The notes beneath the pieces are model-generated. The model searched no databases and was not told where the DNA came from. It worked only from the letters and a program-made list of their open reading frames with translations. From an uncultured Gammaproteobacteria bacterium (GTDB taxonomy: Bacteria; Patescibacteriota; Microgenomatia; 2-02-FULL-39-11), in contig CAZJBV010000002.1 of NCBI GenBank assembly GCA_964544585.1, positions 67,468 to 131,467 on the forward strand: a DNA stretch of 64,000 bases, written 5' to 3'. This document shows, piece after piece, positions 13,084 through 61,442 of the stretch (the first letter of the stretch is position 1; each line of letters starts with the position of its first letter). A program made the position numbers and the translations under genes.

Positions 13084-13087
13084 AAAT

Positions 13088-21915: not shown

Positions 21916-21917
21916 AA

Positions 21918-22943: not shown

Positions 22944-23896
22944 CTAACCCCATCTTCTCCGTAGTTGTTTGCACTCTTAATCGAAAAGAGGCACTTGAAA
23001 AAAACATCGAAAGTCTATTAGACCAAACATTTGATTATCAAAAGTTTGAAATAATAGTTGTCGATGATGGATCTAACGATGGTACAGCCAATTATCTCAA
23101 AACCAAAGCACGAAAGACAAAAGAACCAAAAATAAGAGTCATAATGCATAAAAACAAAGGATTAGCTCATTCACGAAATATTGCCGTCAAAAAAGCTAGA
23201 GGGGAATTCATGGCTTTCATCGACGATGATGCCGTAGCCAGTAGAAACTGGCTCAAAAATGCCTACGGATGTATTAGTTCCGTAAATCCTAAACCTCAAG
23301 GAGTAACAGGTCCAGTAAAGTCCTATTATAAAGTTAAAAAACCTATCTGGTTTAAAGATGAATATGTCGATGACATTAAAGGAATAAAGGAGAGGTTCCT
23401 TAAAACTGGCGAAGCTTTTTCTGGACCAAATATGATCCTAAATAAAGAGATAATAAAAAAATACGGCGGCTTTGATGAATTAGTTGATATGAAAGGAGCC
23501 TTGTTAATGCTAGGCGAGGAGACAAAACTTTTTGAACGTATCTGGAAAAATAATATCGACAAAAAAATACTCTATTACTCTCCCCAAATTATTGTCAATC
23601 ACTTAATTCATCCCTTCAAGCTAACAATTTCATATACTCTAAAACGATGGTTTGCCACAGGTCAATCATATTACTTAAGACATAAAAGAAGCGGACTTCT
23701 AGAAAAAACGGGCATGACTTTTAGAATAGTTGGTTTTACAATTATATCGACGCTGCTGGCTGTTATACTCATTCCTTTTTATAGAAGATATCAAAATTGG
23801 CTGATAGAACGAATCGGACCAATTCTTTTCTGCCTAGGCTTCATCACTTCACTTGCACGCATTTCCTATAACATGAAACAATATAATCGGATATGA
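22940..23896 (+). CDS. GT2 glycosyltransferase with C-terminal TM anchor
   Basis: 'FSVVVCTLNR' and 'IIVVDDGSNDGT' are GT2 motifs. Confidence 0.8.
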   Translation: MTNPIFSVVVCTLNRKEALEKNIESLLDQTFDYQKFEIIVVDDGSNDGTANYLKTKARKTKEPKIRVIMHKNKGLAHSRNIAVKKARGEFMAFIDDDAVASRNWLKNAYGCISSVNPKPQGVTGPVKSYYKVKKPIWFKDEYVDDIKGIKERFLKTGEAFSGPNMILNKEIIKKYGGFDELVDMKGALLMLGEETKLFERIWKNNIDKKILYYSPQIIVNHLIHPFKLTISYTLKRWFATGQSYYLRHKRSGLLEKTGMTFRIVGFTIISTLLAVILIPFYRRYQNWLIERIGPILFCLGFITSLARISYNMKQYNRI

Positions 23897-25440
23897 AAAA
23901 ACTAGTTTTTCTACTGCTCTTTATTACATTTTTAAAAGAAATTGTTTGGATAGCGTTCGTACCTCTCTGGCATTTTCCCGACGAGCAGTCTCACTTTGGA
24001 CAAATTGCTTTCTTGGCCGAAAAAGGAAGAATGCCTTATGATGAAGAGCTAAGTCTCACTGAAGAAATAAGAAAATCAGAAGAATTATTGAGTACAGAAA
24101 GAGATGAATTAGGTATTAATAAATTTACTTATCATCATGAATACAGAATCGAGTACACCCAAAAACTGACAGGAAAATATGAATCTCAAATTAATAACCT
24201 GAAAAATAATCAAAAAGCTCGAAAAATGGTAAAAATAGAAGCTAGTCGATATCATCCTTTTTATTATGCAGTTTTGGGGAGTATCTATAGATTATTTTAT
24301 TACAATACTCTTATTAATAGAGTATTTATCAGTCGGATTTTCCAATCCCTCCTTTCGGTTTTGGTTGTTTTAATAGCTTTTAATGTAGGCAAATATATAT
24401 TCAGAAACCAATTACAATCTCTAACTCTCGCCATTCTTGTTTCCTTTCACCCTATGTTTTCTTTTGTCTCTGCCGGAGTCAACAGTGACAATTTAGGCAC
24501 ATTATTATTTAGCGCCTTCATTCTAATTACTCTTATCATTTTGCATAAAAAGATTAATTTCAAAAATATTTTTATTCTCGGCACAATATCATTATTAACA
24601 TTTATCATCAAACCCCAATATTTCATCGTTTTTCCCTTATCTGTCATGCTTTTTGTTTTCAAAATTTTAATAAGTCTGGAAAATATTCAAATAAAAATTA
24701 TAAAATCAGTTAGTCTAATTGCTCTTTCCTTTATCCTCTTATCCTTTATCCTGCGATTAGGTTTAGGTTCAGGAGTTCTAGTATCAAAATTTATTACTAA
24801 TTTTTCTCCTATTGAACTTACAGCTTATTTTCGCTCGTATGTCATACCCCATCTATATAGAGAAGTATTACCCTGGTATTGGGGAATATACAATTGGCTG
24901 GGTGTGACATACCCCAGAATCGTCCATCGGACTGTAAATTGGATCGGTTTAATTTCGATGGTCGGCCTTGGTCTCATCTTTATAAAAAATAAATTCCGAT
25001 TGACACAGTTTCCCTTAAAAGAAATTGTCTGGCTGATTATCATTAATATCTTTTTTGTCACCGGAATATATTCATATGACTTTCTTGAATGGAGTCAGAA
25101 AAATATTCATCTCGGAGTCCAAGGTAGATATTTTTTTCCAGCCATAATCACCCAAATGAGTCTCATCCTTACCGGATTATTGATACTTATTCCCAAGACA
25201 TGGATTAAATTTAAAAATTATTTCACACATGGAATCGGAATTTTGATGATCGTTTTCAATTTTTATGCTCTATATATTGTGGCGGAGGCTTATTATGATC
25301 TTTCATCATTTGACAGATTTATCATCCAGGCAAGCCAGTATAAACCATGGTTTTTTAAAAGCTGGTATCTACTAAGTATATTTGGAATATACACTTCAAG
25401 CCTTGGAATTTTTCTCTTCAAATATTTGAAGAATAAATGA
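23893..25440 (+). CDS. GT-C fold-like membrane protein (ArnT/PMT-like first-loop DE motif)
   Basis: Multi-TM ORF with 'PDEQSHFGQIAFL' after TM1. Confidence 0.55.
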   Translation: MKKLVFLLLFITFLKEIVWIAFVPLWHFPDEQSHFGQIAFLAEKGRMPYDEELSLTEEIRKSEELLSTERDELGINKFTYHHEYRIEYTQKLTGKYESQINNLKNNQKARKMVKIEASRYHPFYYAVLGSIYRLFYYNTLINRVFISRIFQSLLSVLVVLIAFNVGKYIFRNQLQSLTLAILVSFHPMFSFVSAGVNSDNLGTLLFSAFILITLIILHKKINFKNIFILGTISLLTFIIKPQYFIVFPLSVMLFVFKILISLENIQIKIIKSVSLIALSFILLSFILRLGLGSGVLVSKFITNFSPIELTAYFRSYVIPHLYREVLPWYWGIYNWLGVTYPRIVHRTVNWIGLISMVGLGLIFIKNKFRLTQFPLKEIVWLIIINIFFVTGIYSYDFLEWSQKNIHLGVQGRYFFPAIITQMSLILTGLLILIPKTWIKFKNYFTHGIGILMIVFNFYALYIVAEAYYDLSSFDRFIIQASQYKPWFFKSWYLLSIFGIYTSSLGIFLFKYLKNK

Positions 25441-26894
25441 TACTTTTTTTTATACTCGCCATCGCCTTTATTTTCCGCTTTTATAATGTCCAGGATTGGC
25501 TCTTTTTTGGCATGGACCAGGAGTATGAAGCATTTCTGGTAAAAAACATTCTTTCTGGTATTCACTTTCCCGCAATCGGCGTCAATGCCGGCGATACCGG
25601 ACTTTATCTCGGTCCACTCTTCATCTATTTTGCCGTGATCCCCTACGCCCTTTTTCAAGGCAGTCCCGTTGGAGGAGCCGTAGTCGCCTCCACTCTTGGA
25701 ATTCTAACTACATATTTCATTTATCTTCTCGGTAAACTCTGGTGGGATAAAAGTATAGGATTCATAGCTTCATTTTTATACGCGTCCTCATTTTTGGCAA
25801 CATTATACGACCGACAGTTTTGGAATCCCACTCCTATTCCTCTTGCAACAGTCATTCTTCTCTATTCTCTGACAAAGGTACTGAAGGATCAGCCAAAATA
25901 TTTGATCCTAAGTTCCGTCATTCTTGGCTTTGCCCTCCAAAGTCATTTACAGGCAGTCATCCTCTTAATAATCGCCATAGGTTTCATCGTCTATTTTCAT
26001 AAAAATATAAAAAAATCATTAATTCTTATTTTTTTTATCATTCTCATACTCTTTCAAGCGCCTTTGATCTTTTTCGATCTTCGCCACGAATTTACCAACA
26101 CCAAAGCTTTGGCAAAACTTATCATTCCATCGGAAAGAAAACAAAAGATAATCACCACAAATATTGGAGAAAGATTTAGGCTTTTTTTTAATTCACTGGG
26201 AAGATCTATTTATGTAAAAGGGCCTATCGATTTATATCTCGAAAATGGTCAGTGCGAAGAACTCATTCCCGAAAGAGGTAAAACCAATATCATCGCCATT
26301 GCCATAAGTGTAGCGATGATCTTAATATTTATTTACCGAACCCGTGCAAATCTACTGATCACATATATTTTAATAGCAACCTTCATAGGTCTTTTTATAT
26401 ACAATCACAGAATTTATGAATATTATTTTCTTTATCTATTGCCTCCATTATATTTAATCTATGCCTTTGTCCTCGTTAGTTTATTCAAAAAGAAAAAAAT
26501 TGTCTTTCTTTTTCTACTGTCTCTTTTCTTTTTATTAAACGCCAATGTATTTTTCACCGCCGGGAAAACATATTCTTTTCAAAATAAACTTCAAGCCATA
26601 AAATTTGCTTCCATTTATATAGAAGATGAAAACTACAATCTAAAAGCTTTTGGTGAATGTGGAAAGTACCAAGGATACAGATATCTTTTCGAGTATTTCG
26701 GGAAAATTCCCAACGCATCATATATGGATCCATATTTTTCATGGATTTACGGAGAGCCAAAAAAGAATAAAGTTGCCAAAGAGGTGATAGTAGCTTTAGA
26801 TGGGCGCGATTATCGCCCTTTTAAAGAAAAGGTGATCGCTGAGTCTCAATTTGGTAAGATACTAATATACATTACGAACAATGAAGAGAATTAA
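25437..26894 (+). CDS. GT-C glycosyltransferase (ArnT/PMT-like)
   Basis: Multi-TM ORF. 'DQEYEAFLVKNIL' is a first-loop acidic motif. Paralogous to 36581..38143(-). Confidence 0.65.
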   Translation: MILFFILAIAFIFRFYNVQDWLFFGMDQEYEAFLVKNILSGIHFPAIGVNAGDTGLYLGPLFIYFAVIPYALFQGSPVGGAVVASTLGILTTYFIYLLGKLWWDKSIGFIASFLYASSFLATLYDRQFWNPTPIPLATVILLYSLTKVLKDQPKYLILSSVILGFALQSHLQAVILLIIAIGFIVYFHKNIKKSLILIFFIILILFQAPLIFFDLRHEFTNTKALAKLIIPSERKQKIITTNIGERFRLFFNSLGRSIYVKGPIDLYLENGQCEELIPERGKTNIIAIAISVAMILIFIYRTRANLLITYILIATFIGLFIYNHRIYEYYFLYLLPPLYLIYAFVLVSLFKKKKIVFLFLLSLFFLLNANVFFTAGKTYSFQNKLQAIKFASIYIEDENYNLKAFGECGKYQGYRYLFEYFGKIPNASYMDPYFSWIYGEPKKNKVAKEVIVALDGRDYRPFKEKVIAESQFGKILIYITNNEEN

Positions 26895-28146
26895 GATACT
26901 TATTTTTTCCCCTACAGCCCTTTCTACTTACTATGTTTTTTCCGGAAACATCATCTCTGCCATATTGGCATTTCTATATACTGTCCTCCTTGTTCGCAAC
27001 CTCTCCCTCGCAGACATTGGCTATTTTTCTGCCCTCTGGTCATTTTTGCTTCTTATTGCCGATGTAGCCGAACTTGGCATTGGCACCTCTCTTTCAGCCT
27101 TCGTCCCCATAGCCAAAAGTATAAATGATAGGTTCAATGTAATTAAAACAGCCATGATAATCCAATTTGTTGTAGCTCTATTATTTTCGCTGCCAATATT
27201 TATATTTTCGGATATCATTGCTTCCTTTCTCTTTCATTCGGAGAATTTAAACATACTGGTAAAAGTTACCAGCGTAGGCATTTTTATAGCCGTCATTAAT
27301 TACTTTTATCAATTGGCACTTACATCAGAGGAACGCTTTCTCAAAGTCGCTCTTTTTTCTATTTCCGGAAGCCTGTTTCGCTTAGGGTCTGGTCTAATAC
27401 TCGTCCTGATTTCTCTATTTACTTTAAAAAATGCAGTCATGACACAAGTATTCTCATTAGGCTTATTATTTCTATTAGGAATATTATTGCACCGAAATTC
27501 CATTCTAAAGGGGAAACTTTTACCACTATTTATTAAGAATTTTCTTGCATTTTCTTCATTCCTGGGGATCGCCCGGGGAATGACAGCTTTAGCGTCCCGA
27601 CTTGATGTTCTCATGATTGTGGCAATACGTGGCCCGACAGAAGCAGGCATCTACGCCATTGCCGCAAGAGTAATCTCTCTCTATCCGCTTCTTTCCGGTA
27701 GTTTCAGCTCGGTTCTCGCCCCCAAAATAGCAGCGTTTCGAGAAAAACAGGAGCTCATCAAATTTACTAAAAAAGTTATCCTGGCAACTTTGGGAATAAT
27801 TTTTACCATCATAATTCTCATAATAATAGCCAATCCATTTATGACATTACTCTTTCAGGAAAAGGGAACACAAGCATCTGGCATCTTCCAAGTACTGCTT
27901 ATAAGCATGGTATTCTTTGTCTCCTCAATTCCACCCGTCACATTAGCAGTTTACAGTCTCAAAAAGCCTCATATTTTGACCATCAATAGTTTAATCCAGG
28001 TGACCATAGTATTTTTAGGAAATCTATTCCTCATTCCTCATTTTGGCTATTTTGGCGCCGCCTACTCACTCATCGCGGCTTATGCCATTTCATTAGTTTT
28101 AACCACAGTCTTAACTATTTATTATTTAAATAAAAGATATGGCTAA
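26881..28146 (+). CDS. wzx: oligosaccharide flippase (Wzx, MOP superfamily)
   Basis: 421 aa with about 12 TM segments and Wzx-like topology. Confidence 0.75.
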   Translation: MKRIKILIFSPTALSTYYVFSGNIISAILAFLYTVLLVRNLSLADIGYFSALWSFLLLIADVAELGIGTSLSAFVPIAKSINDRFNVIKTAMIIQFVVALLFSLPIFIFSDIIASFLFHSENLNILVKVTSVGIFIAVINYFYQLALTSEERFLKVALFSISGSLFRLGSGLILVLISLFTLKNAVMTQVFSLGLLFLLGILLHRNSILKGKLLPLFIKNFLAFSSFLGIARGMTALASRLDVLMIVAIRGPTEAGIYAIAARVISLYPLLSGSFSSVLAPKIAAFREKQELIKFTKKVILATLGIIFTIIILIIIANPFMTLLFQEKGTQASGIFQVLLISMVFFVSSIPPVTLAVYSLKKPHILTINSLIQVTIVFLGNLFLIPHFGYFGAAYSLIAAYAISLVLTTVLTIYYLNKRYG

Positions 28147-29026: not shown

Positions 29027-30018
29027 AAATAGCCTTTTTAAATATCTACCACGGAATTGTCGAAAGGGGTTCCGAAGTATTTGTTGAAAATTTATCCCAA
29101 AAATTAGCCCAAAATCATACCGTCAGAGTTTTTCATCAAGATATAAATACTCCTATTCGTAAAAGCCAAGATTTTTTATATGATCTTTCAGTATTTTTGT
29201 TCACCCTTAGCTCTCTGCCTCAACTATGGAAAGAAAAATTCGACTGGATCATCCCCATAAACGGACGCCTGCAAGTATTACTCGTAAGAATACTGCGATT
29301 TTTTCGCGGAGGAAAAATTCTTATTTCTGGCCACGCAGGAGTAGGAGCAGAGGATAAATGGAATATTCTAATTGGAAAACCGGATATCTTTGTTGCTCTA
29401 AGCCCGACCGCATCTGCCTGGGCAAAAAAAATAAACTCCCGCACAAAATACATCCCAAACGGCGTAGATATTGAAAATTTCTCGCCAAATGGAAGAAAAG
29501 CAACAATTCCCTTAAAAAAGCCAATAGTTTTAGTTACGAGCGCACTTCTTCCCTATAAAAGAGTCGAATTGACAATTGAAGCCGTTTCCGAGCTTAAAAA
29601 CACTAGCCTTCTGGTAATAGGCGACGGTCCTTTAAAAAATAAAATAGAAAATTTAGGAAACAATAAATTACAAAATCGATTTCTTCTTATCCCTAAAGTT
29701 TCCTACCGAGAAATCCCTTCTTACTATCGATCAGTAGACGTCTTTACTCTTCCAAGTCGCGAGTCCGAAGCCTTTGGTATTGTCTATCTCGAGGCACTGG
29801 CAACAAATATCCCTGTTGTTGCACCAGATGATGAAAATAGAATCAAAATTATAGGAAATGCCGGCATCTTTTGTAATATCGAAAATACAAAGGAGTATAG
29901 TAAAGCTATTGAAAAAGCACTCAATACGAACTGGGCAAATATTCCACGCAGGGAAGCAGAAAAATTTTCCTGGGAAAAAATAGCCAAGAAGTATGAAGAA
30001 ATATTTCTCTCTTATTAA
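29023..30018 (+). CDS. GT4 glycosyltransferase
   Basis: 'ESEAFGIVYLEALATNIPVV' is the GT4 motif. Confidence 0.8.
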   Translation: MKIAFLNIYHGIVERGSEVFVENLSQKLAQNHTVRVFHQDINTPIRKSQDFLYDLSVFLFTLSSLPQLWKEKFDWIIPINGRLQVLLVRILRFFRGGKILISGHAGVGAEDKWNILIGKPDIFVALSPTASAWAKKINSRTKYIPNGVDIENFSPNGRKATIPLKKPIVLVTSALLPYKRVELTIEAVSELKNTSLLVIGDGPLKNKIENLGNNKLQNRFLLIPKVSYREIPSYYRSVDVFTLPSRESEAFGIVYLEALATNIPVVAPDDENRIKIIGNAGIFCNIENTKEYSKAIEKALNTNWANIPRREAEKFSWEKIAKKYEEIFLSY

Positions 30019-31432
30019 TATTATTCCACTTCTAGTAATTCTTTATGCCTTTATCATCTTTCTTCCCGGCTTTTCTCTGTTTTTTCATCAGGATGATTTT
30101 ATACATCTAGCAGTGAGCCAGCACCTCTCTCAAATAATAAACGCCTTTAATTTATTTTCCCAAGGCGAATTTGCCTTTTATCGCCCGCTCCCCACCCAAG
30201 TCTATTACTATTTAGGAAAATTAGTCTTTGGCCTTAATCCTTTCGGCTACCATAGCATCAATTTTCTTATCTTTTCCGCAAACATAATTTTAGTTTTTAT
30301 CCTAGGAATTCAACTTATAGGAAAAAAAATAATAGGCGCCCTCGCCTCAGTTTTCTATGGTATTAATAGCACTCACGTTGCTCCTCTATTTGCCGCGGCC
30401 TATGTTCATGAACTACTTTATACTTTTTTTGGTTTAGTTTGCATTTTAGCTTATATTAAAAAACGATATCTTTTATCCCTCATCGTTTTTATCCTTGCCC
30501 TCATGACAAAAGAAAATGCCCTCGCTCTTCCTGGTATCTTGGCTCTTTATGAAATAATTTTTAAAAAAAATTCAATTCCCAAAACAATAAGAATCATCAT
30601 TCCTTATGCTCTAATCCTTAGTATTTATCTTTTTGGTCATTTCTTCTTCTATGGAATTGCCCAAAGTTCTTCTTATCAAGTGATTATAGGTAAACCGACC
30701 CTCAACATTTTAATTTGGTATTTCCTCTGGGCGCTCTCGACCCCGAATATTTTAATTGATTTTCTGGGGTCAAAATTCGTTTTAAATCCAGTTTTTTTTG
30801 CCGTTTCCGGCTTCCATGGTTATACATATCTTATTTCCTTTTCTCTTTTTTTACTCTTCCTTTTAGTCTTTAGTTTTATATTTTTCAAAACAGATAATCT
30901 TTTGAAAAGATACATACTTTTTGCCTCCCTTTGGTTTATAGTTGGACTTATTCCACTTCTTCCATTTCCCCTTCATAAACTTGGTACCGAGCAAGCATTT
31001 TCTCTAGTCGGATTGTCATTGGGTCTAGCCACAATTTTATCTTTTATATGGCAAAAAAAGTGGGGCAGACCTTTTGTCGGTCTATCTCTCTTTTTCTTTT
31101 TACTAATTTCTACAAATTCAATTATTCTCGCAAGAAAAACTCATTGGATCGTCAAAAGCAGCAGGGAGGGAGAGAAAGTAATTAATTATTTCCGGCAAAG
31201 GTATAACCAAATACCAAAAGATTCTATTATATATTTTGAAAACGGTGAAATTGTTATCCCCGAATATGGTTCTTCAAAACAATTATATTATTCTTTGGGT
31301 GGGGGAGAAGCATTGCGAATTTTCTTAGAAAAGCCAGAACTACAAATCTATTTTGAGGATATAAACCCTCCCCCCAAAAATACTGACCCAAATAAAATTA
31401 TTCCCATAGATTCTTCCCAATTTATAAATTAA
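29993..31432 (+). CDS. GT-C-like membrane protein, paralog family with the 'F(H/Q)QDDF ... YRP' first-loop motif
   Basis: Multi-TM ORF with 'FFHQDDF' and 'FYRPLP'. Paralogous to 31437..32789 and 42978..44282. Confidence 0.55.
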   Translation: MKKYFSLINIIPLLVILYAFIIFLPGFSLFFHQDDFIHLAVSQHLSQIINAFNLFSQGEFAFYRPLPTQVYYYLGKLVFGLNPFGYHSINFLIFSANIILVFILGIQLIGKKIIGALASVFYGINSTHVAPLFAAAYVHELLYTFFGLVCILAYIKKRYLLSLIVFILALMTKENALALPGILALYEIIFKKNSIPKTIRIIIPYALILSIYLFGHFFFYGIAQSSSYQVIIGKPTLNILIWYFLWALSTPNILIDFLGSKFVLNPVFFAVSGFHGYTYLISFSLFLLFLLVFSFIFFKTDNLLKRYILFASLWFIVGLIPLLPFPLHKLGTEQAFSLVGLSLGLATILSFIWQKKWGRPFVGLSLFFFLLISTNSIILARKTHWIVKSSREGEKVINYFRQRYNQIPKDSIIYFENGEIVIPEYGSSKQLYYSLGGGEALRIFLEKPELQIYFEDINPPPKNTDPNKIIPIDSSQFIN

Positions 31433-31436
31433 GTCA

Positions 31437-32789: not shown

Positions 32790-33508
32790 AGATTTCAATC
32801 ATCATTCCCGTTTATAATGAAGTAAAGACAATTATCCCAGTCTTAAAAAAAGTTATTGATGTTAGCCTTCCTTATTCTACCAAGAAGGAAATTATCATAG
32901 TCGATGATGGATCAACAGACGGTACCGCAGAAAAAATAAGAAATTACGGACAAAAAAATGCTTCCCTAAAAATCATTTTCCATAATAAAAATTTGGGAAA
33001 AGGAAGAGCAATAAAGACTGGCTTAAACAAAAGTACCGGTGACTATATTCTGATTCAAGATGCAGATTTAGAATATAATCCTGAGGAAATACCTCTTCTC
33101 ATCGAAACACTAATTAGGACGAAAAAAAAGAAAAACTATAATATAGCAGTATACGGATCTCGATTTATAAACAAGAACTTTCACATACCTTTTATTTACT
33201 TCTGGGGAAATAAATTCTTAACAATATTGATAAATTTACTCTACGGCGTAAATCTCACAGATATGGAAACTGGATATAAGTTGTTACCACTTCCTATTTT
33301 GAAAAATACGAATATTTCTTCTGCGCACTTCGATTTCGAACCAGAAGTAACCGCCAAATTAGTAAAAAGCAGAGTAAAAATTATCGAAGTACCAATTTCT
33401 TATAAAGGGCGATCACATTTTGCCGGAAAGAAGTTAACTCCCGCTGATGCATTCGAGGCAATCAAAGCTATTATTCGCTACCGTTTTTTTGACCATTCAT
33501 ATAAGTAA
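32786..33508 (+). CDS. GT2 polyprenyl-phosphate glycosyltransferase (DPM1/GtrB-like)
   Basis: 'ISIIIPVYNE', 'IIIVDDGSTDGT' and 'ILIQDADLEY'. Confidence 0.85.
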   Translation: MKISIIIPVYNEVKTIIPVLKKVIDVSLPYSTKKEIIIVDDGSTDGTAEKIRNYGQKNASLKIIFHNKNLGKGRAIKTGLNKSTGDYILIQDADLEYNPEEIPLLIETLIRTKKKKNYNIAVYGSRFINKNFHIPFIYFWGNKFLTILINLLYGVNLTDMETGYKLLPLPILKNTNISSAHFDFEPEVTAKLVKSRVKIIEVPISYKGRSHFAGKKLTPADAFEAIKAIIRYRFFDHSYK

Positions 33509-36394: not shown

Positions 36395-36554
36395 TTGAAA
36401 TTTGTTTCCAAAACATTTTAACTCCGACACTAATTCCCAAAAAACCAGCAATCAAAATCTGGAAAATATAACTACCACTCCCCGGATCTATATAAGCATG
36501 AGATGGAGTCGGAAACAGGAGCGCCACTATAATCAAAATAAAAGCAAGCCTCAT
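36366..36554 (-). CDS. possible small membrane protein (62 aa)
   Basis: ORF lying in the gap between two minus-strand genes, with a hydrophobic N-terminus and a second TM segment. Overlaps the N-terminal extension of the methyltransferase ORF. Confidence 0.25.
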   Translation of the reverse strand: MRLAFILIIVALLFPTPSHAYIDPGSGSYIFQILIAGFLGISVGVKMFWKQISNAIRKIFRK

Positions 36555-36580
36555 ACAAAATAAAAGACCACTTTATAATA

Positions 36581-38143
36581 TCATGGGAAAATATAAACTT
36601 CAATTGCGCCAAAAGTCTTTTTCTGCTGTTTTTTAAGCGTGTTTCTGAATTCTTCATATCTCCTTGGTTGAATACCTACGATTTCCGGTGTAAGAATAGT
36701 AATTGTTTTAACTTGTTTCTCCCTTGAGTTAACATTGTAGTACTCTAAAAGATACTGGTCCATATAGCTTTTAACTGGCTCTTTCCCAAAATAAGTAAAA
36801 AGATAGCGATATCCTCCCGAATACCAGCATGTTTGAAATGAGGCAAGATCAAAATTTTCTTTTCCGACAGTCTTTAGAGCATATTTTACGGCTTCTTCTT
36901 TATAAGAAAGACCATAGGAATTAACTGTCCCCAAAAGTTCGCTCGTATTTAAATATGAAAAAAGTATTAATAGGAAAACAATCCCGTATCGAAAAAGTGG
37001 TTTCTTTAAAGTCGAAATAATTGTTGCCAATACAATAAAAAAATAAGCAAACAAAAATAAATAATAATACTCAGCCATTTCACCTTGTAATACATATGTG
37101 TAGATAACGGACCCGACAGTTACAATTACAAAGAAAATAAAAATAGTTTTTTGTATGAAAAGAGAATTTGAATTATCAGGCCATTTTCTCAAAACTTTAT
37201 ACCCAAAAAATATTAGACTCATAACGACAAAAATACTCAAAATAAACGGAACTCTTTCCTGTTTAAATTTCAAATATTGTGGGCAATTAGCATATTCTAT
37301 AGCCACATTTTTTGATCGGCTCGGTAAAAGTGTTCGGGCTAGGGTACTCGATAGCAGATTATGTGTTAAATAAACTTCCCGTATCCCCGTAAGTGGAACA
37401 TTTTCTTTTATTCTTTCTGGCCCAGAAGAGATAAAATAATTTACTAGATATTTTGAATTAATAAAATTATGTCTCAAATCAAAAATTAAAAGGCTGGACT
37501 GACTTACTAAAAAAATCAAAACGCCTATCACGATATATTTTTTTGGGATAGTTACTTTAAAGAGTAGAATTACTAAAATTGAAAAGGGAATAAAAAGTAT
37601 AATAGCCACCTCAAATTGAGAACAGGCAATAAGAGTCGCTACCAAAACCCAAAAGTATTTTTTTCGCCCTTCTTTAAGTTTGAGAAGACTGTAAAGGACA
37701 AGTAGTGCCAGAAAAGAATGAAAACTTACCTGCCAACCGCGTCTGTCATAAAGAATTGTCAAATACGAAAATACATATAAAAATAGAGCAACAAATCCTG
37801 CTTTTTTTGAAATATATGAACCGATCTTAAATATTAAAATCATCGACGCCACACTTGTCACCACACTCACATACCCCCAAACGACAGGATGAGGACCAAA
37901 TAAAAAATAAAAAGGAGCAATCAAATAATAGAGAAGTGGTCCCAGCCGAAAACCTATTGAAGAGGGATGTCCGACGGTTGGAAAATGTGCAGCATCTGCG
38001 ATACCCTTTATAATATATGCTGCCTTTTCTTCATCAATTGCAAAGTAGAAGAGGTTATGGTAATTCCATAATCGAAGGAAGAGTCCAATGAATATAAGAA
38101 GAATCACTAACCAAAAACTTCGTCTACTGAACAATCTTTTCAT
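36581..38143 (-). CDS. GT-C glycosyltransferase (ArnT/PMT-like)
   Basis: 'DEEKAAYIIKGI' first-loop motif; paralogous to 25437..26894. Confidence 0.65.
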   Translation of the reverse strand: MKRLFSRRSFWLVILLIFIGLFLRLWNYHNLFYFAIDEEKAAYIIKGIADAAHFPTVGHPSSIGFRLGPLLYYLIAPFYFLFGPHPVVWGYVSVVTSVASMILIFKIGSYISKKAGFVALFLYVFSYLTILYDRRGWQVSFHSFLALLVLYSLLKLKEGRKKYFWVLVATLIACSQFEVAIILFIPFSILVILLFKVTIPKKYIVIGVLIFLVSQSSLLIFDLRHNFINSKYLVNYFISSGPERIKENVPLTGIREVYLTHNLLSSTLARTLLPSRSKNVAIEYANCPQYLKFKQERVPFILSIFVVMSLIFFGYKVLRKWPDNSNSLFIQKTIFIFFVIVTVGSVIYTYVLQGEMAEYYYLFLFAYFFIVLATIISTLKKPLFRYGIVFLLILFSYLNTSELLGTVNSYGLSYKEEAVKYALKTVGKENFDLASFQTCWYSGGYRYLFTYFGKEPVKSYMDQYLLEYYNVNSREKQVKTITILTPEIVGIQPRRYEEFRNTLKKQQKKTFGAIEVYIFP

Positions 38144-39605
38144 AAAAGATATCCCAATTATACTTCTTTTTCTGACAATTGTTGCCTCTCTTTACGCCTT
38201 CATGTCAGTCCATATCCACAACAAATTCATGACCTTTGCTCTGGATCTGGGGACATTTGACGAGTCAATTTGGAAAATAAGCGCCTTTCGTTTTCCTTAT
38301 AGCAGTTCTGGTTGTAACTGGCTGATTGAGGATCATTTCCAACTCATCTTTTATCTTCTTGCCCCTCTTTTCTGGATCTGGGACAATGTCAGAATTCTTC
38401 TTATAGCTCAGAGCTTTGCCATGGTCGCGGCCAGCTTTCCCCTTTATATACTCTCTAAAAAAATTACTGGCAATAAAATTTTTTCTTTTGGGATAGTCTT
38501 TTCCTATCTTTTTTTTATCGGCACCCAGTTTGCCATCCTCAACGAATTTCACCAGATAACTTTTGCTCCCGTATTTATTGCTACGCTCTTTTTAGCTCTC
38601 GAAAACAAAAACTGGAAATGGTATCTCTATTCACTATTCTTTCTTTTTATTATCAAAGAGGATGTCTCTTTACTCATTGGCGGCATCGGGCTCGGACTGC
38701 TATTTCGTAAGGGATATAGAAAACTTGGCCTAGCAACCGCAATTATCGGTATCAGTTTTTTCTTCTTTCTTGTTTATATCTTTATGCCTTTTATAGCAAT
38801 AAAAGGAGTCTATGGGCATTTTCATTTTGGTGCTGCAGGAAAAAATCCCGAAGAAGTTATCAAAAATATTATCATCAGGCCTGATTTCTTTTTAAAATCA
38901 ATGATTTATCCCGACGCAAAAATAAGGACTTGGTTTATCTCCTTTTTTACATACGGATTTCAGCCAATATTTGCACCGGTTTTCATACTAATTCCTCTCC
39001 TTGAGGATTTCGCAACTCGATTTATATATGCAGGTCCCCAATATACAAAATGGGGACTAGTCAACCATCACGCCGCAACATCCGCCATTTTGCTTGCCAT
39101 AACTTCAATCTATGCAGTAAAAAAAATAACCACCAGATTTAGTCTCATTGGAGTAATTCTTATTACCACAACTATAGTCTCAGACATTGTTTTTCACGGA
39201 CCAATCAACTCACTATTAAAAACTCAATTTTATCAAAAAGAGCAATGGATGTTGGATAACGAGGAAGTTTTAAAAAGAATACCAAAAGATCCAAATATAT
39301 CTGTTACTGCTCAAAACAATCTTGTTCCTCATATTACTCACAGAGAAAGTGCATATAGAATTCCCTATGGATTGAATAGTCAATATATGTTTTTCGATCT
39401 TCACGATGGCCCGAATAAATATTCTCCTTTAAATCACAAACAAACGACTGAATTCGTAGATGAACTCCTAAAAACTAAGCGCTATTGGCTCGTCTACCAA
39501 AAAGGCAAAGCCATGCTTCTAAAGAGAAACTACAAAACAGACATCACCAAAAGCCCATACTACAACGACACTCGCTATTGCTATTATTCGTACGAAGAAA
39601 GATGA
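38088..39605 (+). CDS. DUF2079-like polytopic membrane protein
   Basis: A TM helix followed by 'FALDLGTFDESIW', as in the DUF2079 family. Its 5' end overlaps the divergent gene 36581..38143 by 56 bp. Confidence 0.5.
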   Translation: MNIRRITNQKLRLLNNLFIKDIPIILLFLTIVASLYAFMSVHIHNKFMTFALDLGTFDESIWKISAFRFPYSSSGCNWLIEDHFQLIFYLLAPLFWIWDNVRILLIAQSFAMVAASFPLYILSKKITGNKIFSFGIVFSYLFFIGTQFAILNEFHQITFAPVFIATLFLALENKNWKWYLYSLFFLFIIKEDVSLLIGGIGLGLLFRKGYRKLGLATAIIGISFFFFLVYIFMPFIAIKGVYGHFHFGAAGKNPEEVIKNIIIRPDFFLKSMIYPDAKIRTWFISFFTYGFQPIFAPVFILIPLLEDFATRFIYAGPQYTKWGLVNHHAATSAILLAITSIYAVKKITTRFSLIGVILITTTIVSDIVFHGPINSLLKTQFYQKEQWMLDNEEVLKRIPKDPNISVTAQNNLVPHITHRESAYRIPYGLNSQYMFFDLHDGPNKYSPLNHKQTTEFVDELLKTKRYWLVYQKGKAMLLKRNYKTDITKSPYYNDTRYCYYSYEER

Positions 39606-40469
39606 ATGTATAGTACAATGGCTTCAATGATCTCTATTATTATTCCTGTCTATAATGAAGAAAAAAACATCATAGACTGCCTCAATTCTCTGTCTAGACA
39701 GTCATATCAAGATTTTGAAATAATCGTCGTTGACGACGGTTCATCCGATAAAACACAGGAAGTGTTATCAAACTACAAACTACCAACTACCAACTATCAA
39801 CTACTCAAACAGCCCCATCTCGGTCCAGGCAAAGCGCGCAATCTTGGTGTTTCGAAGGCAAAAGGCGATATTTTAGTCTTTGTCGATGCTGATATGACCT
39901 TCGACAAGGATTTTATCAAAAACTTGATTGCACCAATTGAAAAGGGGCAAACAAAAGGTACATTTACCCGCCTTGAATATGTTTCAAATTGGGCCAATCC
40001 CGTGGCTCGAGCATGGAATTATAATCAAGGGAGAAGTGACCGGCAAAGAGTAGCCTTAAATGATCCATTCGAGGGTTCAGTATTTAGAGCCATTCTCAAA
40101 AGTGAGTTTGATAGTGTGGGCGGCTTCGAACAAAAAATAGGCTACACCGACGACTGGTCTCTTTCCCGAAAATTACGGTATAGAGCTACATCTGCCCCAA
40201 ACGCAATTTGTTATCATAAAAACCCCGAAACGCTTAAAGAAGTATTTCTCCAAGCAAGATGGATAGGAAAAAATGAGTTTATCACCGGTTCTTTTCTAAG
40301 AAAACTGTTCAACCTATTTCGTTATAATCCCATAATCCAAATTCCCAGAAGCATTCTCTATACTCTCAAATATAAGGAATTATCAATCATACCAGTCTAT
40401 TGGGTTTATTCTCTAGCCATACAAACTAGCATATTGGGATCCTTTGTAAGGGAAAACAAATATAAATGA
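39606..40469 (+). CDS. GT2 glycosyltransferase
   Basis: 'ISIIIPVYNEE', 'IIVVDDGSSDKT' and 'VFVDADM'. Confidence 0.8.
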   Translation: MYSTMASMISIIIPVYNEEKNIIDCLNSLSRQSYQDFEIIVVDDGSSDKTQEVLSNYKLPTTNYQLLKQPHLGPGKARNLGVSKAKGDILVFVDADMTFDKDFIKNLIAPIEKGQTKGTFTRLEYVSNWANPVARAWNYNQGRSDRQRVALNDPFEGSVFRAILKSEFDSVGGFEQKIGYTDDWSLSRKLRYRATSAPNAICYHKNPETLKEVFLQARWIGKNEFITGSFLRKLFNLFRYNPIIQIPRSILYTLKYKELSIIPVYWVYSLAIQTSILGSFVRENKYK

Positions 40470-41854
40470 AGAAATATTATCTAAGTCTTATTCTTCTAAT
40501 CGCTCTTATATTGCGTCTTATAAATCTCAACCAATCTCTCTGGCTTGATGAAGCTGCCCAAGCCCTCGAGTCCGCCCGCCCTCTTTCCCAACAGCTCAAT
40601 ATCGTTGCCGATTTTCATCCGCCGCTCTATCATATTTTTCTTCATTTTTGGATGCTGGGAGGCAAAAGTGAAATTTGGTTGCGCACCCCCTCAGTTTTAT
40701 TCGGAATAGGCGCTATCTTTCTCTTAATCAAAATAGGTAGATTACTCGGGCATGAAAAAGCATCACTATTGGGAGGACTTTTTTTTGCCATATCGCCATT
40801 TGCCATTTGGTACTCACAAGAAATCCGCCCCTATATATTTTTTACTTTCTTTTCTCTCCTATCAACATATTTTCTCTTAAAAAAGAACTGGTCATGGTAT
40901 ACCGCGACTTCAGTTTTAACAATATATTCCAATTACTTCGCCCCCTTTTTATTCCTTTCACAAATACTGTATGTCTTATTTTTCGACAAAAAAAATATAA
41001 AGATTCTTTTGGCTTTACTCATCATTATTGGTTTGGCCTTTTTACCATGGTTTCCCTTTTTTCTCGATCAACTTAAAGTTGGAACGGCAGGAGTATTCCG
41101 CGGCTGGAGCCAAATTGTTTCTGTTGAGGCAATAAAAGTTATTCCTCTCACACTGGCCAAATTCATCTTTGGCAGAGGAACAATTGACAATCAGCTATTA
41201 TACGCCCTCATTCTCTCCCCAATCCTAATAATATTTTTATATTCAGTCATTATCCTTGGAAAGGAAAAAAGTAATTGGAAACTCTTTTTTTTCTTTTTTA
41301 TTCCTCTCTTATCTGTCACTTTCATAACAGCAATCATACCCATTGCCGCCCCCCAGCGTCTCCTCTTTATCTCACCTTATTTTCTCCTTATTATTGCCGC
41401 ATCGATCGAGAAATTACCACCAAAAGAAAAATATTTTTGTATTTTATTAGTAGTTGCAGTTTCCCTTGCTGGATTGTGGCAGTATTATACCGATGAAAAA
41501 GTCCAAAGAGAAAAATGGAGAGAGGCAGTTCTCTATATTGAAAAATCGACGCCAAAAGACAGCGTAGCTCTATTTATTTTTCCCACACCATTTGCCCCAT
41601 GGCAGTGGTACAACCGGAATATCATTACAGGAAAAGGAATAGCACCTGCTTTTATAGTCAGGGACGAAGATCTTATAAATCTGGAAAAGGAAATATTTGA
41701 TAAAAAAGGAATTTTCCTTTTCCAATACTTAAGCGGACTGACCGATCCTGAAGGCAAAACCCTGGCCAAATTAAACGATTTAGGATATAAACAATCTGAT
41801 ATTAAAAACTTTGCCGGAGTAGGGTTTATATACGTTTTGGAAAAGCCTTTATGA
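40466..41854 (+). CDS. GT39/GT83-like GT-C glycosyltransferase (ArnT/PMT family)
   Basis: 'LWLDEAAQALESA' first-loop DE motif; multi-TM with a C-terminal soluble domain. Confidence 0.75.
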   Translation: MKKYYLSLILLIALILRLINLNQSLWLDEAAQALESARPLSQQLNIVADFHPPLYHIFLHFWMLGGKSEIWLRTPSVLFGIGAIFLLIKIGRLLGHEKASLLGGLFFAISPFAIWYSQEIRPYIFFTFFSLLSTYFLLKKNWSWYTATSVLTIYSNYFAPFLFLSQILYVLFFDKKNIKILLALLIIIGLAFLPWFPFFLDQLKVGTAGVFRGWSQIVSVEAIKVIPLTLAKFIFGRGTIDNQLLYALILSPILIIFLYSVIILGKEKSNWKLFFFFFIPLLSVTFITAIIPIAAPQRLLFISPYFLLIIAASIEKLPPKEKYFCILLVVAVSLAGLWQYYTDEKVQREKWREAVLYIEKSTPKDSVALFIFPTPFAPWQWYNRNIITGKGIAPAFIVRDEDLINLEKEIFDKKGIFLFQYLSGLTDPEGKTLAKLNDLGYKQSDIKNFAGVGFIYVLEKPL

Positions 41855-42981
41855 TTAAAGTCGCCATAGACATAACACAAATAATTCACAAAGGTACAGG
41901 TGTGGCAAACTATGTCAGAAACCTATGCATCCACCTAGCCAAAAATAGAGACATATCTCTCGTACTCTTTGGTTATTCTTACTCAAAATTTAACGAGCTT
42001 CTAAATTTTACAAACGATATAAAAAGAATAAACCAAACTGTTGAAGTAAAACTATTTAAAATTCCAGAAAGATTTTTCAATATTTTATGGAATACACTAC
42101 ACATTATCGCGGTCGAAAGATTGATAGGTCCAGTGGATATCATCCATACCTCAGACTGGATAGAACCTCCCTCCCATGCTCCCAAAGTTACTACAATTCA
42201 TGATCTCATCATATACAAATATTCAGATACATCCCATCCATATATCATCAAAACACAATCCAAAAAGCTGGCATGGGTAAAAAAAGAGACAGAAACGATC
42301 TTTGCTGACTCAGAAACAACGAAAAAGGACATAGTTGATCTTTTAAAAATATCTTCAGAGAAAATAAAAGTAGTCTATCCTGGTCTTGATAAAGATATTT
42401 ATCCTCGTGGAAACCATATTATAGTCGGAGTCGAAAAAAGATATAAAATAAGAGGAGATTATATTCTCTCTGTAGGTACTCAGGAACCACGCAAAAACTT
42501 AAAAGCCGCCATCGATGCTTTTACTTTATATCAACAGCATCCTCTTGTCCAAATAAAAAAACCCCCAGTCGAGCTCATTATTATCGGCAAGTATGGCTGG
42601 GGAGAAGGAGCATACGTTCCGCCCGGAGTCAGAAATATTGGTTTTATAGAAACCAGAGAATTATCAGCGCTCTATAGCGGATCTTTAATGCTGGTTTACA
42701 CCTCTCTTTATGAAGGATTCGGATTTCCCGCTCTTGAAGCAATGAAATGTGGCTGTCCGGTAATTTTATCAGATAGGGGGAGTCTAGCCGAAATAGGAAA
42801 AAATGCGGCAATATTGGTCAACCCCCACGACGTCCGTGAAATAGCAAGACAGATGGTCACGCTGACAGTCAATAAAAAACAGAGAGATCAATGGAGGGAA
42901 AAGGGATTAAAAAATGCCGAAAAATACAAATGGGAAAGCGCGATTGATAAAATAATCTCTCACTATAAGAAAATTGCATGA
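41851..42981 (+). CDS. GT4 glycosyltransferase
   Basis: 'YEGFGFPALEAMKCGCPVILS'. Confidence 0.8.
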   Translation: MIKVAIDITQIIHKGTGVANYVRNLCIHLAKNRDISLVLFGYSYSKFNELLNFTNDIKRINQTVEVKLFKIPERFFNILWNTLHIIAVERLIGPVDIIHTSDWIEPPSHAPKVTTIHDLIIYKYSDTSHPYIIKTQSKKLAWVKKETETIFADSETTKKDIVDLLKISSEKIKVVYPGLDKDIYPRGNHIIVGVEKRYKIRGDYILSVGTQEPRKNLKAAIDAFTLYQQHPLVQIKKPPVELIIIGKYGWGEGAYVPPGVRNIGFIETRELSALYSGSLMLVYTSLYEGFGFPALEAMKCGCPVILSDRGSLAEIGKNAAILVNPHDVREIARQMVTLTVNKKQRDQWREKGLKNAEKYKWESAIDKIISHYKKIA

Positions 42982-44282
42982 ACAAAAAGGATACCCTTTT
43001 TTTAATCACCGCATGCCTTCTGACCTTAGTCATTTTCTTCAAAGCCCTTTCCAACTTTTTCTTCATGGACGATTTCGTCAATATGTATATCGGCTGGGTC
43101 CAAAATTGGGACGACCTCAGAACCATGCTCTTCTCATTTCAAACTTATCCTTACACCGCCTATCGTCCCATACCTTATTTTCTCTACGGATATATAATCA
43201 TCAATATTTTTCATCTCAATCCCATCATTACTCATCTTGCCATGTTTTCACTTCATATATTTAATGCCTATCTTGTCTATAAATTATCAAAATCTATTAT
43301 TACTGCACTCATTTACTCAACCGCGGCTATTCACTTCGGTTCTCTCTATTGGTGGAGCGGACATTATGTCACAGTAGGCACTACCTTTTTCCTCCTCTCA
43401 ATTCTTACTTATCCTAAATGGAAAACGTTACTACTATATGTCCCAATGCTTCTCTCAAATGAAAGTCTACTTTTGATACCAATTATTTATTTATTTATTT
43501 CTAAACTTCAAAAAAAGCACCCACCATACAAATTATTATCGTTAATGATTATAATGAGTCTTGCTTCGTTTATTTTTCGCCTTCGCATCAGTAAATTTGG
43601 CCAACTACCCGATTATGCCATTGGAAACATCACTCAAATAATTCAAACAATCCGTTGGTACTTTTTACGCTTGACTAACCTTCCAGAGGCAGTCCAAAGT
43701 ATGCCCACCGCCGAAAGAAATGTTTTATATACAATAGTCGCCATGTTCATTATCACTTTAGTTATCCTCGTCTTTAAATTCTGGAAAAAAATAATAAAAA
43801 ACTCTTCAATTCATCTCGGATCAATCATTTTTATTACTACCGCATCAGCCTTTTTCCTTCTTCCCAAACATCTTTCCAGTTATTATTTAAATACAGGTTT
43901 TGTCGGTGCTGGCCTAATTTTGGGGACAATCATTAGTTTCGGATTTTCCTCACAAAAATTTCAACTCAAAGCCATTTCCCTCATATCCATAATCACATTT
44001 CTCACCGGATCATTTATAAGCGTCCAATATATGAGTAAAACATCGCCTCTTGTCTGGCGCGGGGAAATTGCACGCAACTATATAGAAAAAGTAAGATCGG
44101 CCCATCCGGTTATTCTCAAAAATGCAACCATTATTTTTCAAAACACCAAAGTCCCTCTTGGAGAATTAAGTATTACCCTATACCATGATAAAGCACTCCG
44201 TTTATATTACAATGATAAGACAATAAAAGTATTGTATGGAAAGAAGTCCAAAGATAAAAATTTATTCGTTATTCAAGATTAA
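42978..44282 (+). CDS. GT-C-like membrane protein (third paralog of the FxxDDF/YRP family)
   Basis: 'FFFMDDFV' and 'AYRPIP'. Confidence 0.55.
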   Translation: MNKKDTLFLITACLLTLVIFFKALSNFFFMDDFVNMYIGWVQNWDDLRTMLFSFQTYPYTAYRPIPYFLYGYIIINIFHLNPIITHLAMFSLHIFNAYLVYKLSKSIITALIYSTAAIHFGSLYWWSGHYVTVGTTFFLLSILTYPKWKTLLLYVPMLLSNESLLLIPIIYLFISKLQKKHPPYKLLSLMIIMSLASFIFRLRISKFGQLPDYAIGNITQIIQTIRWYFLRLTNLPEAVQSMPTAERNVLYTIVAMFIITLVILVFKFWKKIIKNSSIHLGSIIFITTASAFFLLPKHLSSYYLNTGFVGAGLILGTIISFGFSSQKFQLKAISLISIITFLTGSFISVQYMSKTSPLVWRGEIARNYIEKVRSAHPVILKNATIIFQNTKVPLGELSITLYHDKALRLYYNDKTIKVLYGKKSKDKNLFVIQD

Positions 44283-59497: not shown

Positions 59498-59533
59498 TAT
59501 AGTCGAATTTCAAATTTAGAGTATACTTAAATT

Positions 59534-61347: not shown

Positions 61348-61413
61348 ATTCATAATTCATACTTTATAATTTTAAAGCCCTATCTGTAGTGCTCTAAAGC
61401 AAGCTTTAACCCC

Positions 61414-61442
61414 TTGACATCGGCCTAAAATTGGTTCATCAT
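61414..61442 (+). promoter_or_regulatory. candidate sigma70-type promoter for mraZ (TTGACA, 17-bp spacer, weak -10 CATCAT)
   Basis: TTGACA at 61414-61419 and CATCAT at 61437-61442. A TATAAT is also present at 61368-61373. Confidence 0.3.

Follow-up and report, generated by a model that had tools for sequence, protein, structure and literature searches.

Eleven GT-C-type proteins in a 64-kb window

We analysed a 64-kb stretch of contig CAZJBV010000002.1 (hereafter the window, with positions counted from its first letter) for genes encoding membrane glycosyltransferases of the GT-C type, which use polyprenyl-phosphate-sugars as donors. The host is a Microgenomates bacterium, Gottesmanbacteria-like, and as such an ultra-small member of the candidate phyla radiation (CPR); its DNA in the window has a G+C content of ~35%, and the genes are tightly packed and lie nearly all on the plus strand. 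Pfam scans covered essentially every open reading frame (ORF) of at least 150 aa in the window, and membrane helices were counted with a simple hydropathy script. The GT-C set is listed below; each protein is called by the first coordinate of its gene, with (-) for the minus strand, and TM1 denotes the first transmembrane helix.

2357..4018, plus strand: GT-C-fold protein, the eleventh of the set, 553 aa, with a C-terminal alpha/beta domain (AlphaFold2 model, Foldseek)
4019..5986, minus strand: PMT_2-type GT-C, 655 aa (PF13231, E 2.3e-9)
23893..25440, plus strand: DUF2142-type GT-C, 515 aa, PDEQSH after TM1 (homologues, profile match)
25437..26894, plus strand: PMT_2-type GT-C, 485 aa (PF13231, E 8.1e-11)
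29993..31432, plus strand: TMTC-like paralogue 1, 479 aa; DD at residues 34-35 (nt 30092-30097), YRP at 63-65 (nt 30179-30187), TKE at 171-173
31437..32789, plus strand: TMTC-like paralogue 2, 450 aa; DD at residues 28-29 (nt 31518-31523), YRP at 57-59 (nt 31605-31613), SNE at 167-169 (E169 invariant), PETIKDQ at 244-250
36581..38143, minus strand: paralogue of 25437, 520 aa, AIDEEK after TM1 (sequence comparison)
38088..39605, plus strand: DUF2079 polytopic membrane protein, 505 aa (PF09852, E 1.7e-46)
40466..41854, plus strand: PMT_2-type GT-C, 462 aa, WLDEAAQ after TM1 (PF13231, E 2e-7)
42978..44282, plus strand: TMTC-like paralogue 3, 434 aa; DD at residues 31-32 (nt 43068-43073), YRP at 62-64 (nt 43161-43169), SNE at 160-162
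46962..50069, plus strand: fusion protein, 1035 aa; Wzy_C at residues 229-442, PMT_2 (PF13231) at residues 622-781

An earlier note, made from the letters of this DNA alone, had named ten of these ORFs as GT-C-like, and Pfam matches, paralogy, profile comparisons and predicted folds agree with it for all ten, coordinates included; its total of about ten was too low, as 2357 has the fold as well. The gathering cut-off of PF13231 is passed by 4019(-), 25437, 40466 and the C-terminal half of 46962. The 36581(-) protein, itself without a Pfam match, aligns as a paralogue with 25437 along its whole length (505 aligned positions, 29.5% identical, E 1e-49). Pfam likewise gave no match for 23893 itself, which has hundreds of homologues; among the 120 listed, most carry PF09913 (DUF2142) and some also PF13231, and the family profile aligns with the local PMT_2 group over 312 columns (E 1.8e-10 by hhalign, whose E-values are pairwise throughout, without database correction). 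The match of 38088 to the same group is in register and weak (E 3.8e-5, 158 columns, two sequences only); with its acidic motif after the first helix, this protein is probably GT-C-like, and it is the weakest case of the eleven. A search of NCBIfam with ten of the GT-C candidates gave no useful match. An acidic motif follows the first hydrophobic helix directly in 11/11 proteins, most clearly as QDDF, DEE, LDEA, PDEQSH, FDES or YYDS. The eleven genes total 18.3 kb, or 29% of the window; since a typical bacterial genome holds only a handful of GT-C genes, this density is a very strong local enrichment.

The 2357 protein belongs to a family of which 27 homologues were found, 0/27 with a Pfam domain. 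In the family alignment (A2), PYYDS is conserved after TM1, and D144, R146, R147, D148 and S187-R188-G189-N190 are invariant. The 33 best Foldseek matches of its AlphaFold2 model (pLDDT 88.5) in the PDB are all GT-C enzymes, including STT3 (best E, 5e-6), AglB, PglB, DPY19, AftA, AftD, ALG9, Emb and Pmt4. On the strength of this model, 2357 is a predicted GT-C enzyme of an orphan family that has no Pfam model. Its gene comes after a short-chain dehydrogenase/reductase (SDR) gene, a DPM-like GT2 gene (612) and a gene for a UDP-GlcNAc 3-dehydrogenase-like oxidoreductase (1368..2357), in that order. The hidden Markov model (HMM) of the family found no member within the 67 related loci described below.

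A three-member family with an FxxDD[FW]...YRP motif

The proteins 29993, 31437 and 42978 are mutual full-length paralogues (24-26% identity, E 1e-12 to 6e-24), and share a first-loop motif just as had been described from the letters alone: FFHQDDF/FYRPLP, YFFQDDF/FYRPLS and FFFMDDF/AYRPIP, respectively. None of the three has a Pfam match at E<=0.01 or a meaningful NCBIfam match, and none reaches the cut-off of PF13231. A homologue search with 31437 returned 36 proteins; a single one has a name (hypothetical protein, Curtissbacteria), and PF13231 occurs in two distant ones. In an alignment of 27 sequences (A1), D28, D29, R58, P59, E169 and Y221 (31437 numbering) are invariant, and Y57 is kept in at least 90%. 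Among 173 full-length relatives, 171 have DD[FWYLIV] within their first 90 residues, most commonly as FFQDDW, FFQDDF or FSQDDF, and 159 have [YF]RP 27-36 residues after the DD. Because these alignment columns are invariant and both elements are so widely kept, sequence comparison attributes the shared motif to homology and not to chance. The family is large: a profile search of 1.84 billion cluster representatives retrieved 1384 at E<=1e-30 and 31,862 at E<=1e-10.

The AlphaFold2 model of 31437 (pLDDT 92.3, pTM 0.92) has TM1 at residues 2-22, loop helices at 28-35 and 41-48, ~11-12 membrane helices in all and, from about residue 395, a small C-terminal alpha/beta domain of ~55 residues after the last helix; hydropathy gives 7-11 segments in the three paralogues. 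Structure prediction, which the earlier note had proposed as a means of placing the DD motif, sets it at the opening of the loop just after TM1, in a protein of GT-C fold. Judging from the positively charged N-terminus alone, the N-terminus would lie inside and the DD loop outside. The first 21 Foldseek matches of the model in the PDB are all GT-C enzymes (ArnT at the top; STT3, AglB, DPY19, ALG6, Pmt and AftA among the others). A sequence-profile search of the PDB with A1 returned nothing relevant, and hhalign found no match between A1 and the single sequences of 23893, 38088 and 2357, for which family profiles are needed. Sequence and model together thus make the three paralogues predicted GT-C-type membrane glycosyltransferases.

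Relationship to the TMTC O-mannosyltransferases

The earlier note had placed the motif outside the signatures known to it, which is not borne out. A DD or DxD shortly after TM1 is the classic, long-known loop-1 signature of GT-C enzymes (PMC6801728), and DD together with YRP corresponds to motifs M1 and M2 of TMTC1-4, the animal O-mannosyltransferases of CAZy family GT105. In these enzymes, M1 (DD) and M2 (SHKSYRP) lie in the first outer loop (EL1), M3 (RxD) in EL2, M4 (KE(T/Q)xxT) in EL3, M5 (DW) in EL4 and M7 (ERxxY) in EL5 (PMC7801869). We rebuilt six TMTC membrane domains from the supplementary alignment of that paper, which has masked X segments, and compared them with the family. The A1 HMM matched the six TMTC N-domains at E 4e-11 to 7e-5 (Z set to 1e6), and in the same search did not match an ArnT fragment. 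In global mode, hhalign matches A1 to the TMTC alignment along 374 columns (Prob 98.9, E 2e-16), and in local mode along 360 columns (E 6e-12). The columns pair DD with DD, YRPL with YRPL, LNP..FH with (L/M)NP..(F/Y)H, (K/N)E..T with KE..T, and KDQ with (Y/F)DW. As a control, other CPR PMT_2 groups did not match the TMTCs (E 0.004-0.16); they matched ArnT at E 1e-5 to 3e-6. A1 itself matched CPR PMT_2 groups at E 2e-13 to 2e-7, and the PMT_2 paralogue group of the window at E 2.4e-13. PDB searches turned up no solved structure of a TMTC membrane domain.

Both sides have a GT-C core of ~11 helices, YRP(L) ~30-40 residues after DD in the same loop, and LNP..[FY]H and A.H segments. Motif by motif, the DD of M1 is present in the paralogues and column-aligned with that of the TMTCs; the YRP of M2 is kept and aligned, with V/I-Q/A-F in place of the SHK part. 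At M4, TKENALAL, SNEFMIT and SNESLLL align to KE, with Asn standing in for Lys in two paralogues out of three, and distant family members have SKET at this position. The ..DW segment of M5 aligns with PETIKDQ and PNILIDF, and with PEAVQSM in 42978, which lacks the EL4 Asp. M3 is absent (N-F-S-Y against G-R-A-D in the TMTCs), as is M7, where the aligned segment reads P-x-H-x-S-P-H. DUF1736, the Pfam domain of the TMTCs, was not detected in the paralogues, whose corresponding loop is shorter, and there is no Pfam match to the tetratricopeptide repeats (TPRs) of the TMTC C-terminus, the ~55-residue domain standing there instead. The settings also differ, animal endoplasmic reticulum and a dolichyl carrier on the one side, a CPR bacterium and a predicted polyprenyl carrier on the other.

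At the sequence level, then, the TMTCs are the nearest characterised relatives of the three paralogues, and the family lies in the PMT_2/ArnT/TMTC part of the GT-C superfamily. As the paralogues lack TPRs, DUF1736, M3, M7 and the SHK of M2, we call them TMTC-like and reject membership of GT105. They form a TMTC-like branch, unnamed and without TPRs, of a well-known superfamily of enzymes, and would work by a familiar two-step scheme.

Donor-type glycosyltransferases and the surrounding island

Three GT2 proteins bear on the supply of donors, together with genes for export, initiation and nucleotide-sugar supply:

612..1325, plus strand: polyprenyl-phosphate-sugar-synthase-like GT2, 237 aa, following a truncated TviC/GalE-type SDR (..628)
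32786..33508, plus strand: DPM1/GtrB/ArnC-like GT2, 240 aa, no membrane helix; predicted polyprenyl-phosphate-sugar synthase
39606..40469, plus strand: generic GT2, 287 aa; best PDB matches chondroitin synthase and GalT1, DPMS at E 2e-10
26881..28146, plus strand: Wzx-type flippase (Polysacc_synt; Pfam)
55145..56227, plus strand: mannose-1-phosphate guanylyltransferase-like protein with NTP_transferase and ManC_GMP_beta-helix domains; possible GDP-mannose supply
56234..56890, plus strand: initiating phosphoglycosyl transferase (Bac_transf; PF02397, E 5.6e-61)

The start of 32786 overlaps the stop of 31437 by 4 nt. In the PDB, 32786 matches best the Pyrococcus dolichyl-phosphate-mannose (Dol-P-Man) synthase 5mlz (E 4.5e-17, over the full length), followed by ArnC and GtrB; in NCBIfam the leading matches are AglJ, ArnC, PgfS, PpgS and a Dol-P-hexose transferase, every one of them under its curated cut-off. 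The 612 protein matches GtrB (sll0501) and ArnC best in the PDB, more weakly than 32786 does, and PgfS, ArnC and a Dol-P-hexose transferase in NCBIfam, again all under the curated cut-offs. Of the three DPM1-like donors that had been proposed from the letters, 612 and 32786 therefore look, by sequence, like polyprenyl-phosphate-sugar synthases, and 39606 does not, chondroitin synthase and GalT1 being its best matches. Two further GT2 genes were considered as GtrB-like donors and rejected, namely 22940, which has two hydrophobic segments and lies directly upstream of 23893 (whose start overlaps it by 4 nt), and 46085, upstream of 46962; the best matches of both are glycan-extending GT2s, and 39606, too, looks like an ordinary enzyme of that type.

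The window from position 1 to ~58.9 kb is a glycan-biosynthesis island. Its nucleotide-sugar genes encode the truncated TviC/GalE-type SDR at the left edge, the UDP-GlcNAc 3-dehydrogenase-like oxidoreductase, NeuB with a cytidylyltransferase, an SDR, an aldehyde dehydrogenase, a transketolase-like enzyme, the ManC-like nucleotidyltransferase, a GATase and a hexapeptide acyltransferase. There are eight GT2, seven GT4-type, one GT11-like and one GT10-like cytoplasmic glycosyltransferases, and three FkbM-type methyltransferases with two other candidates; export and initiation are represented by the Wzx flippase, the Wzy_C domain and the Bac_transf enzyme. The Wzy_C domain of 46962 is of the O-antigen ligase, polymerase or PglL type, and its fusion to PMT_2 could link ligation or polymerisation to side-chain glycosylation.

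A recurring cassette in related Microgenomates loci

The nearest related loci come from Candidatus Gottesmanbacteria, Curtissbacteria, Daviesbacteria and other Microgenomates. One Gottesmanbacteria locus (L004) is collinear with the window over 25437-41854, at 37-59% protein identity. Many metagenome-assembled genomes of third-party origin that are titled 'uncultured Gammaproteobacteria' (L005, L006, L008, L010 and others) carry the same Microgenomates-type cassettes as well, and these labels look unreliable. The FxxDD[FW]...YRP family has 81 genes across 66 related loci, and tandem pairs like that of the window are frequent among them. A GT2 like 32786 or 612 lies at most 3 kb from a family gene in 34/66 loci, upstream and on the same strand in 32 of these, and an SDR sugar epimerase/dehydratase is equally close in 25/66; no other gene class comes near this. 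We used the distance criterion because ORF calling in the related loci was crude and genes intervene, so that a strict count of DPM-like GT2s as immediate neighbours comes to only 21/66. Further genes seen in examples of these loci encode a nucleotide-sugar 6-dehydrogenase and a cupin. The cassette that recurs thus consists of a sugar-nucleotide tailoring enzyme, a polyprenyl-phosphate-sugar synthase and a GT-C protein.

In total, the 67 related loci (985 kb) contain 293 ORFs of at least 380 aa with at least seven hydrophobic segments, or ~3 per 10 kb, against 1.9 per 10 kb in the window by the same crude measure. Seventy of these belong to the family and ~20 are relatives of the PMT_2, DUF2079 and DUF2142 proteins of the window. 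The other 202 form 33 clusters, whose representatives are Wzx flippases, PMT_2 proteins, a weak AftD-like GT-C and groups without a Pfam match. Largest among the unassigned clusters is one of 76 proteins, each ~580 aa long, which carry 'HDD' after TM1 (e.g. L029:10807-12549, plus strand) and have no Pfam match. Its match to A1 covers the N-terminal 183 columns (E 9e-7), and by this comparison it is probably another unannotated GT-C family. We found nothing specific in the literature on GT-C or glycosyltransferase expansions in CPR bacteria.

A proposed scheme of extracytoplasmic glycosylation and its alternatives

Extracytoplasmic glycosylation, to which the earlier note had pointed, is the natural reading of this region, because the GT-C proteins occur together with two GT2s of the polyprenyl-phosphate-sugar-synthase type inside a large surface-glycan island. 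From gene content, homology, predicted fold, motif conservation and synteny, we infer the following donor chemistry, membrane sidedness and acceptor. Cytoplasmic enzymes would make the nucleotide sugars, and a repeat unit would be built on polyprenyl phosphate by the Bac_transf enzyme 56234 and the GT2 and GT4 proteins and flipped by the Wzx protein 26881, after which the Wzy_C domain of 46962 would polymerise or ligate it. In parallel, the soluble GT2s 32786 and 612 would put single sugars on polyprenyl phosphate, and the flipped lipid-phosphate-sugars would serve as donors for the eleven GT-C proteins, with transfer at the outer face. If TMTC models and solved GT-C structures are a guide, the Asp that comes first after TM1 would act in catalysis or acceptor binding, and the sugar-phosphate and a metal ion would be held by YRP and by the (K/N)E in outer loop 3. 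Note that catalysis may differ from that of the TMTCs in its details, given the lack of M3 and M7 and, in 42978, of the EL4 Asp. For the 32786/31437 pair, the donor sugar may plausibly be mannose, because the island has the ManC-like 55145 and, among solved structures, 32786 matches a Dol-P-Man synthase best.

The acceptor would be the glycopolymer of the island itself, through addition of side chains or branches or through extracytoplasmic elongation. We favour this acceptor, with a confidence that stops just short of even, because the genes lie inside a Wzx/Wzy/Bac_transf locus and because DUF2142 and GT-C proteins in streptococcal and lactococcal wall polysaccharide loci modify the polymer (PMC9746298); the wall polysaccharides of these bacteria and the mannan and arabinan of mycobacteria would be the parallels. 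Separate GT-C proteins of the island may also serve separate acceptors. As a general mechanism, we consider it highly probable that glycosylation takes place on the outer side of the membrane and depends on lipid-phosphate-sugars; the explanation as a whole, with island, donors, eleven GT-C proteins and polymer acceptor, is somewhat better than an even proposition.

Several results weigh against this explanation. The TMTC and PMT relatives glycosylate proteins, which speaks against polysaccharide as the acceptor of the three paralogues. Neither 32786 nor 612 has the membrane helices of GtrB and ArnC, and their NCBIfam scores lie far under the curated cut-offs. No GtrA-type small flippase was seen in the window, where ORFs of at least 150 aa leave almost no gaps and small ORFs were not scanned in full; the gap at 61.3-64 kb, read down to 50 aa, holds no GtrA-type gene, and in L017 the small ORF (130 aa) that separates the GT2 from the family gene encodes a cupin. 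In the family, the TMTC motifs M3 and M7 are missing, as is the EL4 Asp in 42978. Lastly, the Foldseek scores of the 31437 model are modest in E (best 3e-3) with a TM-score of ~0.5, at probabilities mostly of 0.95-1.00.

The first of these points makes protein O-glycosylation a serious rival, in which the TMTC-like paralogues, and perhaps the PMT_2 proteins, would pass the sugar of a polyprenyl-phosphate-sugar to Ser/Thr residues of proteins that are secreted or displayed at the surface, for instance pilins, S-layer or wall-anchored proteins. By both profile and motifs, protein O-mannosyltransferases are the characterised enzymes closest to the paralogues (PMC7801869), and the TMTC, PMT, actinobacterial Pmt, streptococcal Pgf and PgtC systems all act on proteins. 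The SDR epimerase/GT2/GT-C cassette parallels that of S. mutans Pgf, and PgfS is among the best NCBIfam matches of 32786. The S. mutans gene set consists of PgfS/PgfM1/PgfE/PgfM2. Type IV pilins and sortase are plentiful in CPR genomes according to a paper on CPR protein families that makes no mention of glycosyltransferases (PMC6744442). The paralogues, however, have the ~55-residue domain where TMTCs have the TPRs that are generally thought to contact the protein substrate, no Ser/Thr-rich acceptor gene was identified within the window, and the genes lie within a Wzx/Wzy polysaccharide locus; we consider protein acceptors possible, if rather unlikely.

A different objection concerns the count itself, as some of the polytopic proteins might be polymerases, ligases, flippases, scaffolds or ArnT-like modifiers of glycolipids, in which case GT-C density would overstate the number of transfer steps. 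Such a reading draws on the Wzy_C ligase/polymerase domain joined to PMT_2 in 46962, on the lack of a characterised member in DUF2079 and the 2357 family, and on the weak match of 38088 (E 3.8e-5); it fits poorly with the acidic motif right after the first membrane helix in 11/11 proteins, with fold matches that are catalytic GT-C enzymes and with catalytic-loop residues that are invariant across families, and we regard it as improbable. That the ORFs or the motif are chance products of a low-GC sequence rich in hydrophobic codons might be suspected at a GC content of ~35%, hydrophobic proteins being prone to spurious similarity; the 1384 cluster representatives at E<=1e-30, the kept synteny, the confident models and the invariant motif columns refute it, and we give it virtually no weight.

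Comparison with known systems

The three-component systems (GtrA/GtrB/Gtr-type; CsbB/GtcA/YfhO; CsdA/CsdB/CflA; GacI/GacL) likewise have a DPM1/GtrB-like GT2 beside a polytopic GT-C protein, and in lactococcal CsdA/CsdB/CflA and the streptococcal systems the GT-C genes stand in a wall-polysaccharide locus, as here (PMC9746298). This arrangement therefore points to a lipid-phosphate-monosaccharide donor used outside the membrane. Unlike those systems, the window has GT2s without C-terminal membrane helices, shows no GtrA-type gene, and has eleven GT-C proteins sharing at most two or three donor synthases. The cassette of the related loci (dehydrogenase/SDR, GT2, GT-C) follows the same logic as ArnA/ArnC/ArnT, rhizobial RgtE/RgtA-D, and the Gtr/Csb and lactococcal Csd systems. 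Streptococcal Pgf systems combine a tailoring enzyme, a GT2 and a GT-C protein in the same manner. ArnT is the top structural match of 31437, yet the family has no sequence-level match to it; the acidic motif of ArnT is DE as opposed to DD here, and lipid A, the Arn substrate, is not expected in CPR bacteria. To Pfam PMT_2 (PF13231; ArnT/GT83- and GT39-like) there is remote profile homology only, the three paralogues staying under every Pfam threshold.

Mycobacteria, with Ppm1 and PimE/MptA-C, EmbA-C, AftA-D and Pmt, likewise use many GT-C proteins and polyprenyl-phosphate-monosaccharides, and so build and branch a wall glycan outside the membrane. AftA, AftD and Emb are among the fold matches of the window proteins, and Emb proteins also have a DD motif (D281/D282 in 7bvf; PMC7801869). 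The window lineage is unrelated to mycobacteria, its proteins are much smaller and lack the large periplasmic domains of Emb and AftD, and its genes lie in one island.

CPR bacteria need their cell surface for host attachment, and the chemistry of their envelope is almost unknown. That 29% of 64 kb is given over to predicted glycosylation outside the membrane points to an elaborate glycan coat built extracellularly, as with mycobacteria and Gram-positive wall polysaccharides. A large family without Pfam annotation is now linked to the TMTC O-mannosyltransferases, with D28, D29, R58 and E169 as candidate catalytic residues, and its small bacterial members are possible structural and biochemical surrogates for TMTC. 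The 2357 family and the ~580-aa 'HDD' family mark gaps in annotation, being GT-C-like groups without a Pfam model. A bolder proposal, which we think unlikely, is that a lineage-wide and largely unannotated expansion of extracytoplasmic GT-C proteins exists in Microgenomates, in which the YRP family would be a minimal, TPR-less prokaryotic TMTC that O-mannosylates pilins or adhesins for host attachment with the polyprenyl-phosphate-mannose of the adjacent GT2. If true, an animal glycosylation pathway would extend to episymbiotic bacteria, and the family would offer a tractable minimal model enzyme.

Other features of the island and its right boundary

The nonulosonic-acid pathway (NeuB and the cytidylyltransferase), together with the SDR, the aldehyde dehydrogenase and the transketolase-like enzyme, is encoded in 11201..17195 and 21070..22943 on the plus strand. 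With the GT11-like and GT10-like (fucosyltransferase family) genes and the three FkbM methyltransferases also present, this gene content suggests a sialic-acid-like, fucosylated and methylated glycan in a CPR bacterium. Among the remaining genes are the following:

8567..9535: soluble protein, 322 aa, no Pfam match
19766..21073: soluble protein, 435 aa, no Pfam match
33471..34994, minus strand: membrane-anchored sulfatase/LtaS-like protein with three N-terminal hydrophobic segments (PF00884, E 3.2e-6); candidate extracytoplasmic phospho-substituent transferase
56942..58939: DUF4012 protein, 665 aa, single-pass, adjoining the initiating transferase

The sulfatase/LtaS-like gene forms a minus-strand pair (33471..36451) with the gene of a 486-aa protein whose C-terminus weakly matches a methyltransferase; where this pair would fall in L004, which is syntenic, there is instead a PMT_2-like gene together with a small ORF. 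To the right, the island is bounded by 58943..63142, where genes for RecO, a class II aminoacyl-tRNA synthetase, a signal-anchored hypothetical protein (60862), MraZ (61504..61899), RsmH/MraW (61918) and a small FtsL-like membrane protein (62816) open a gene cluster for division and the cell wall.

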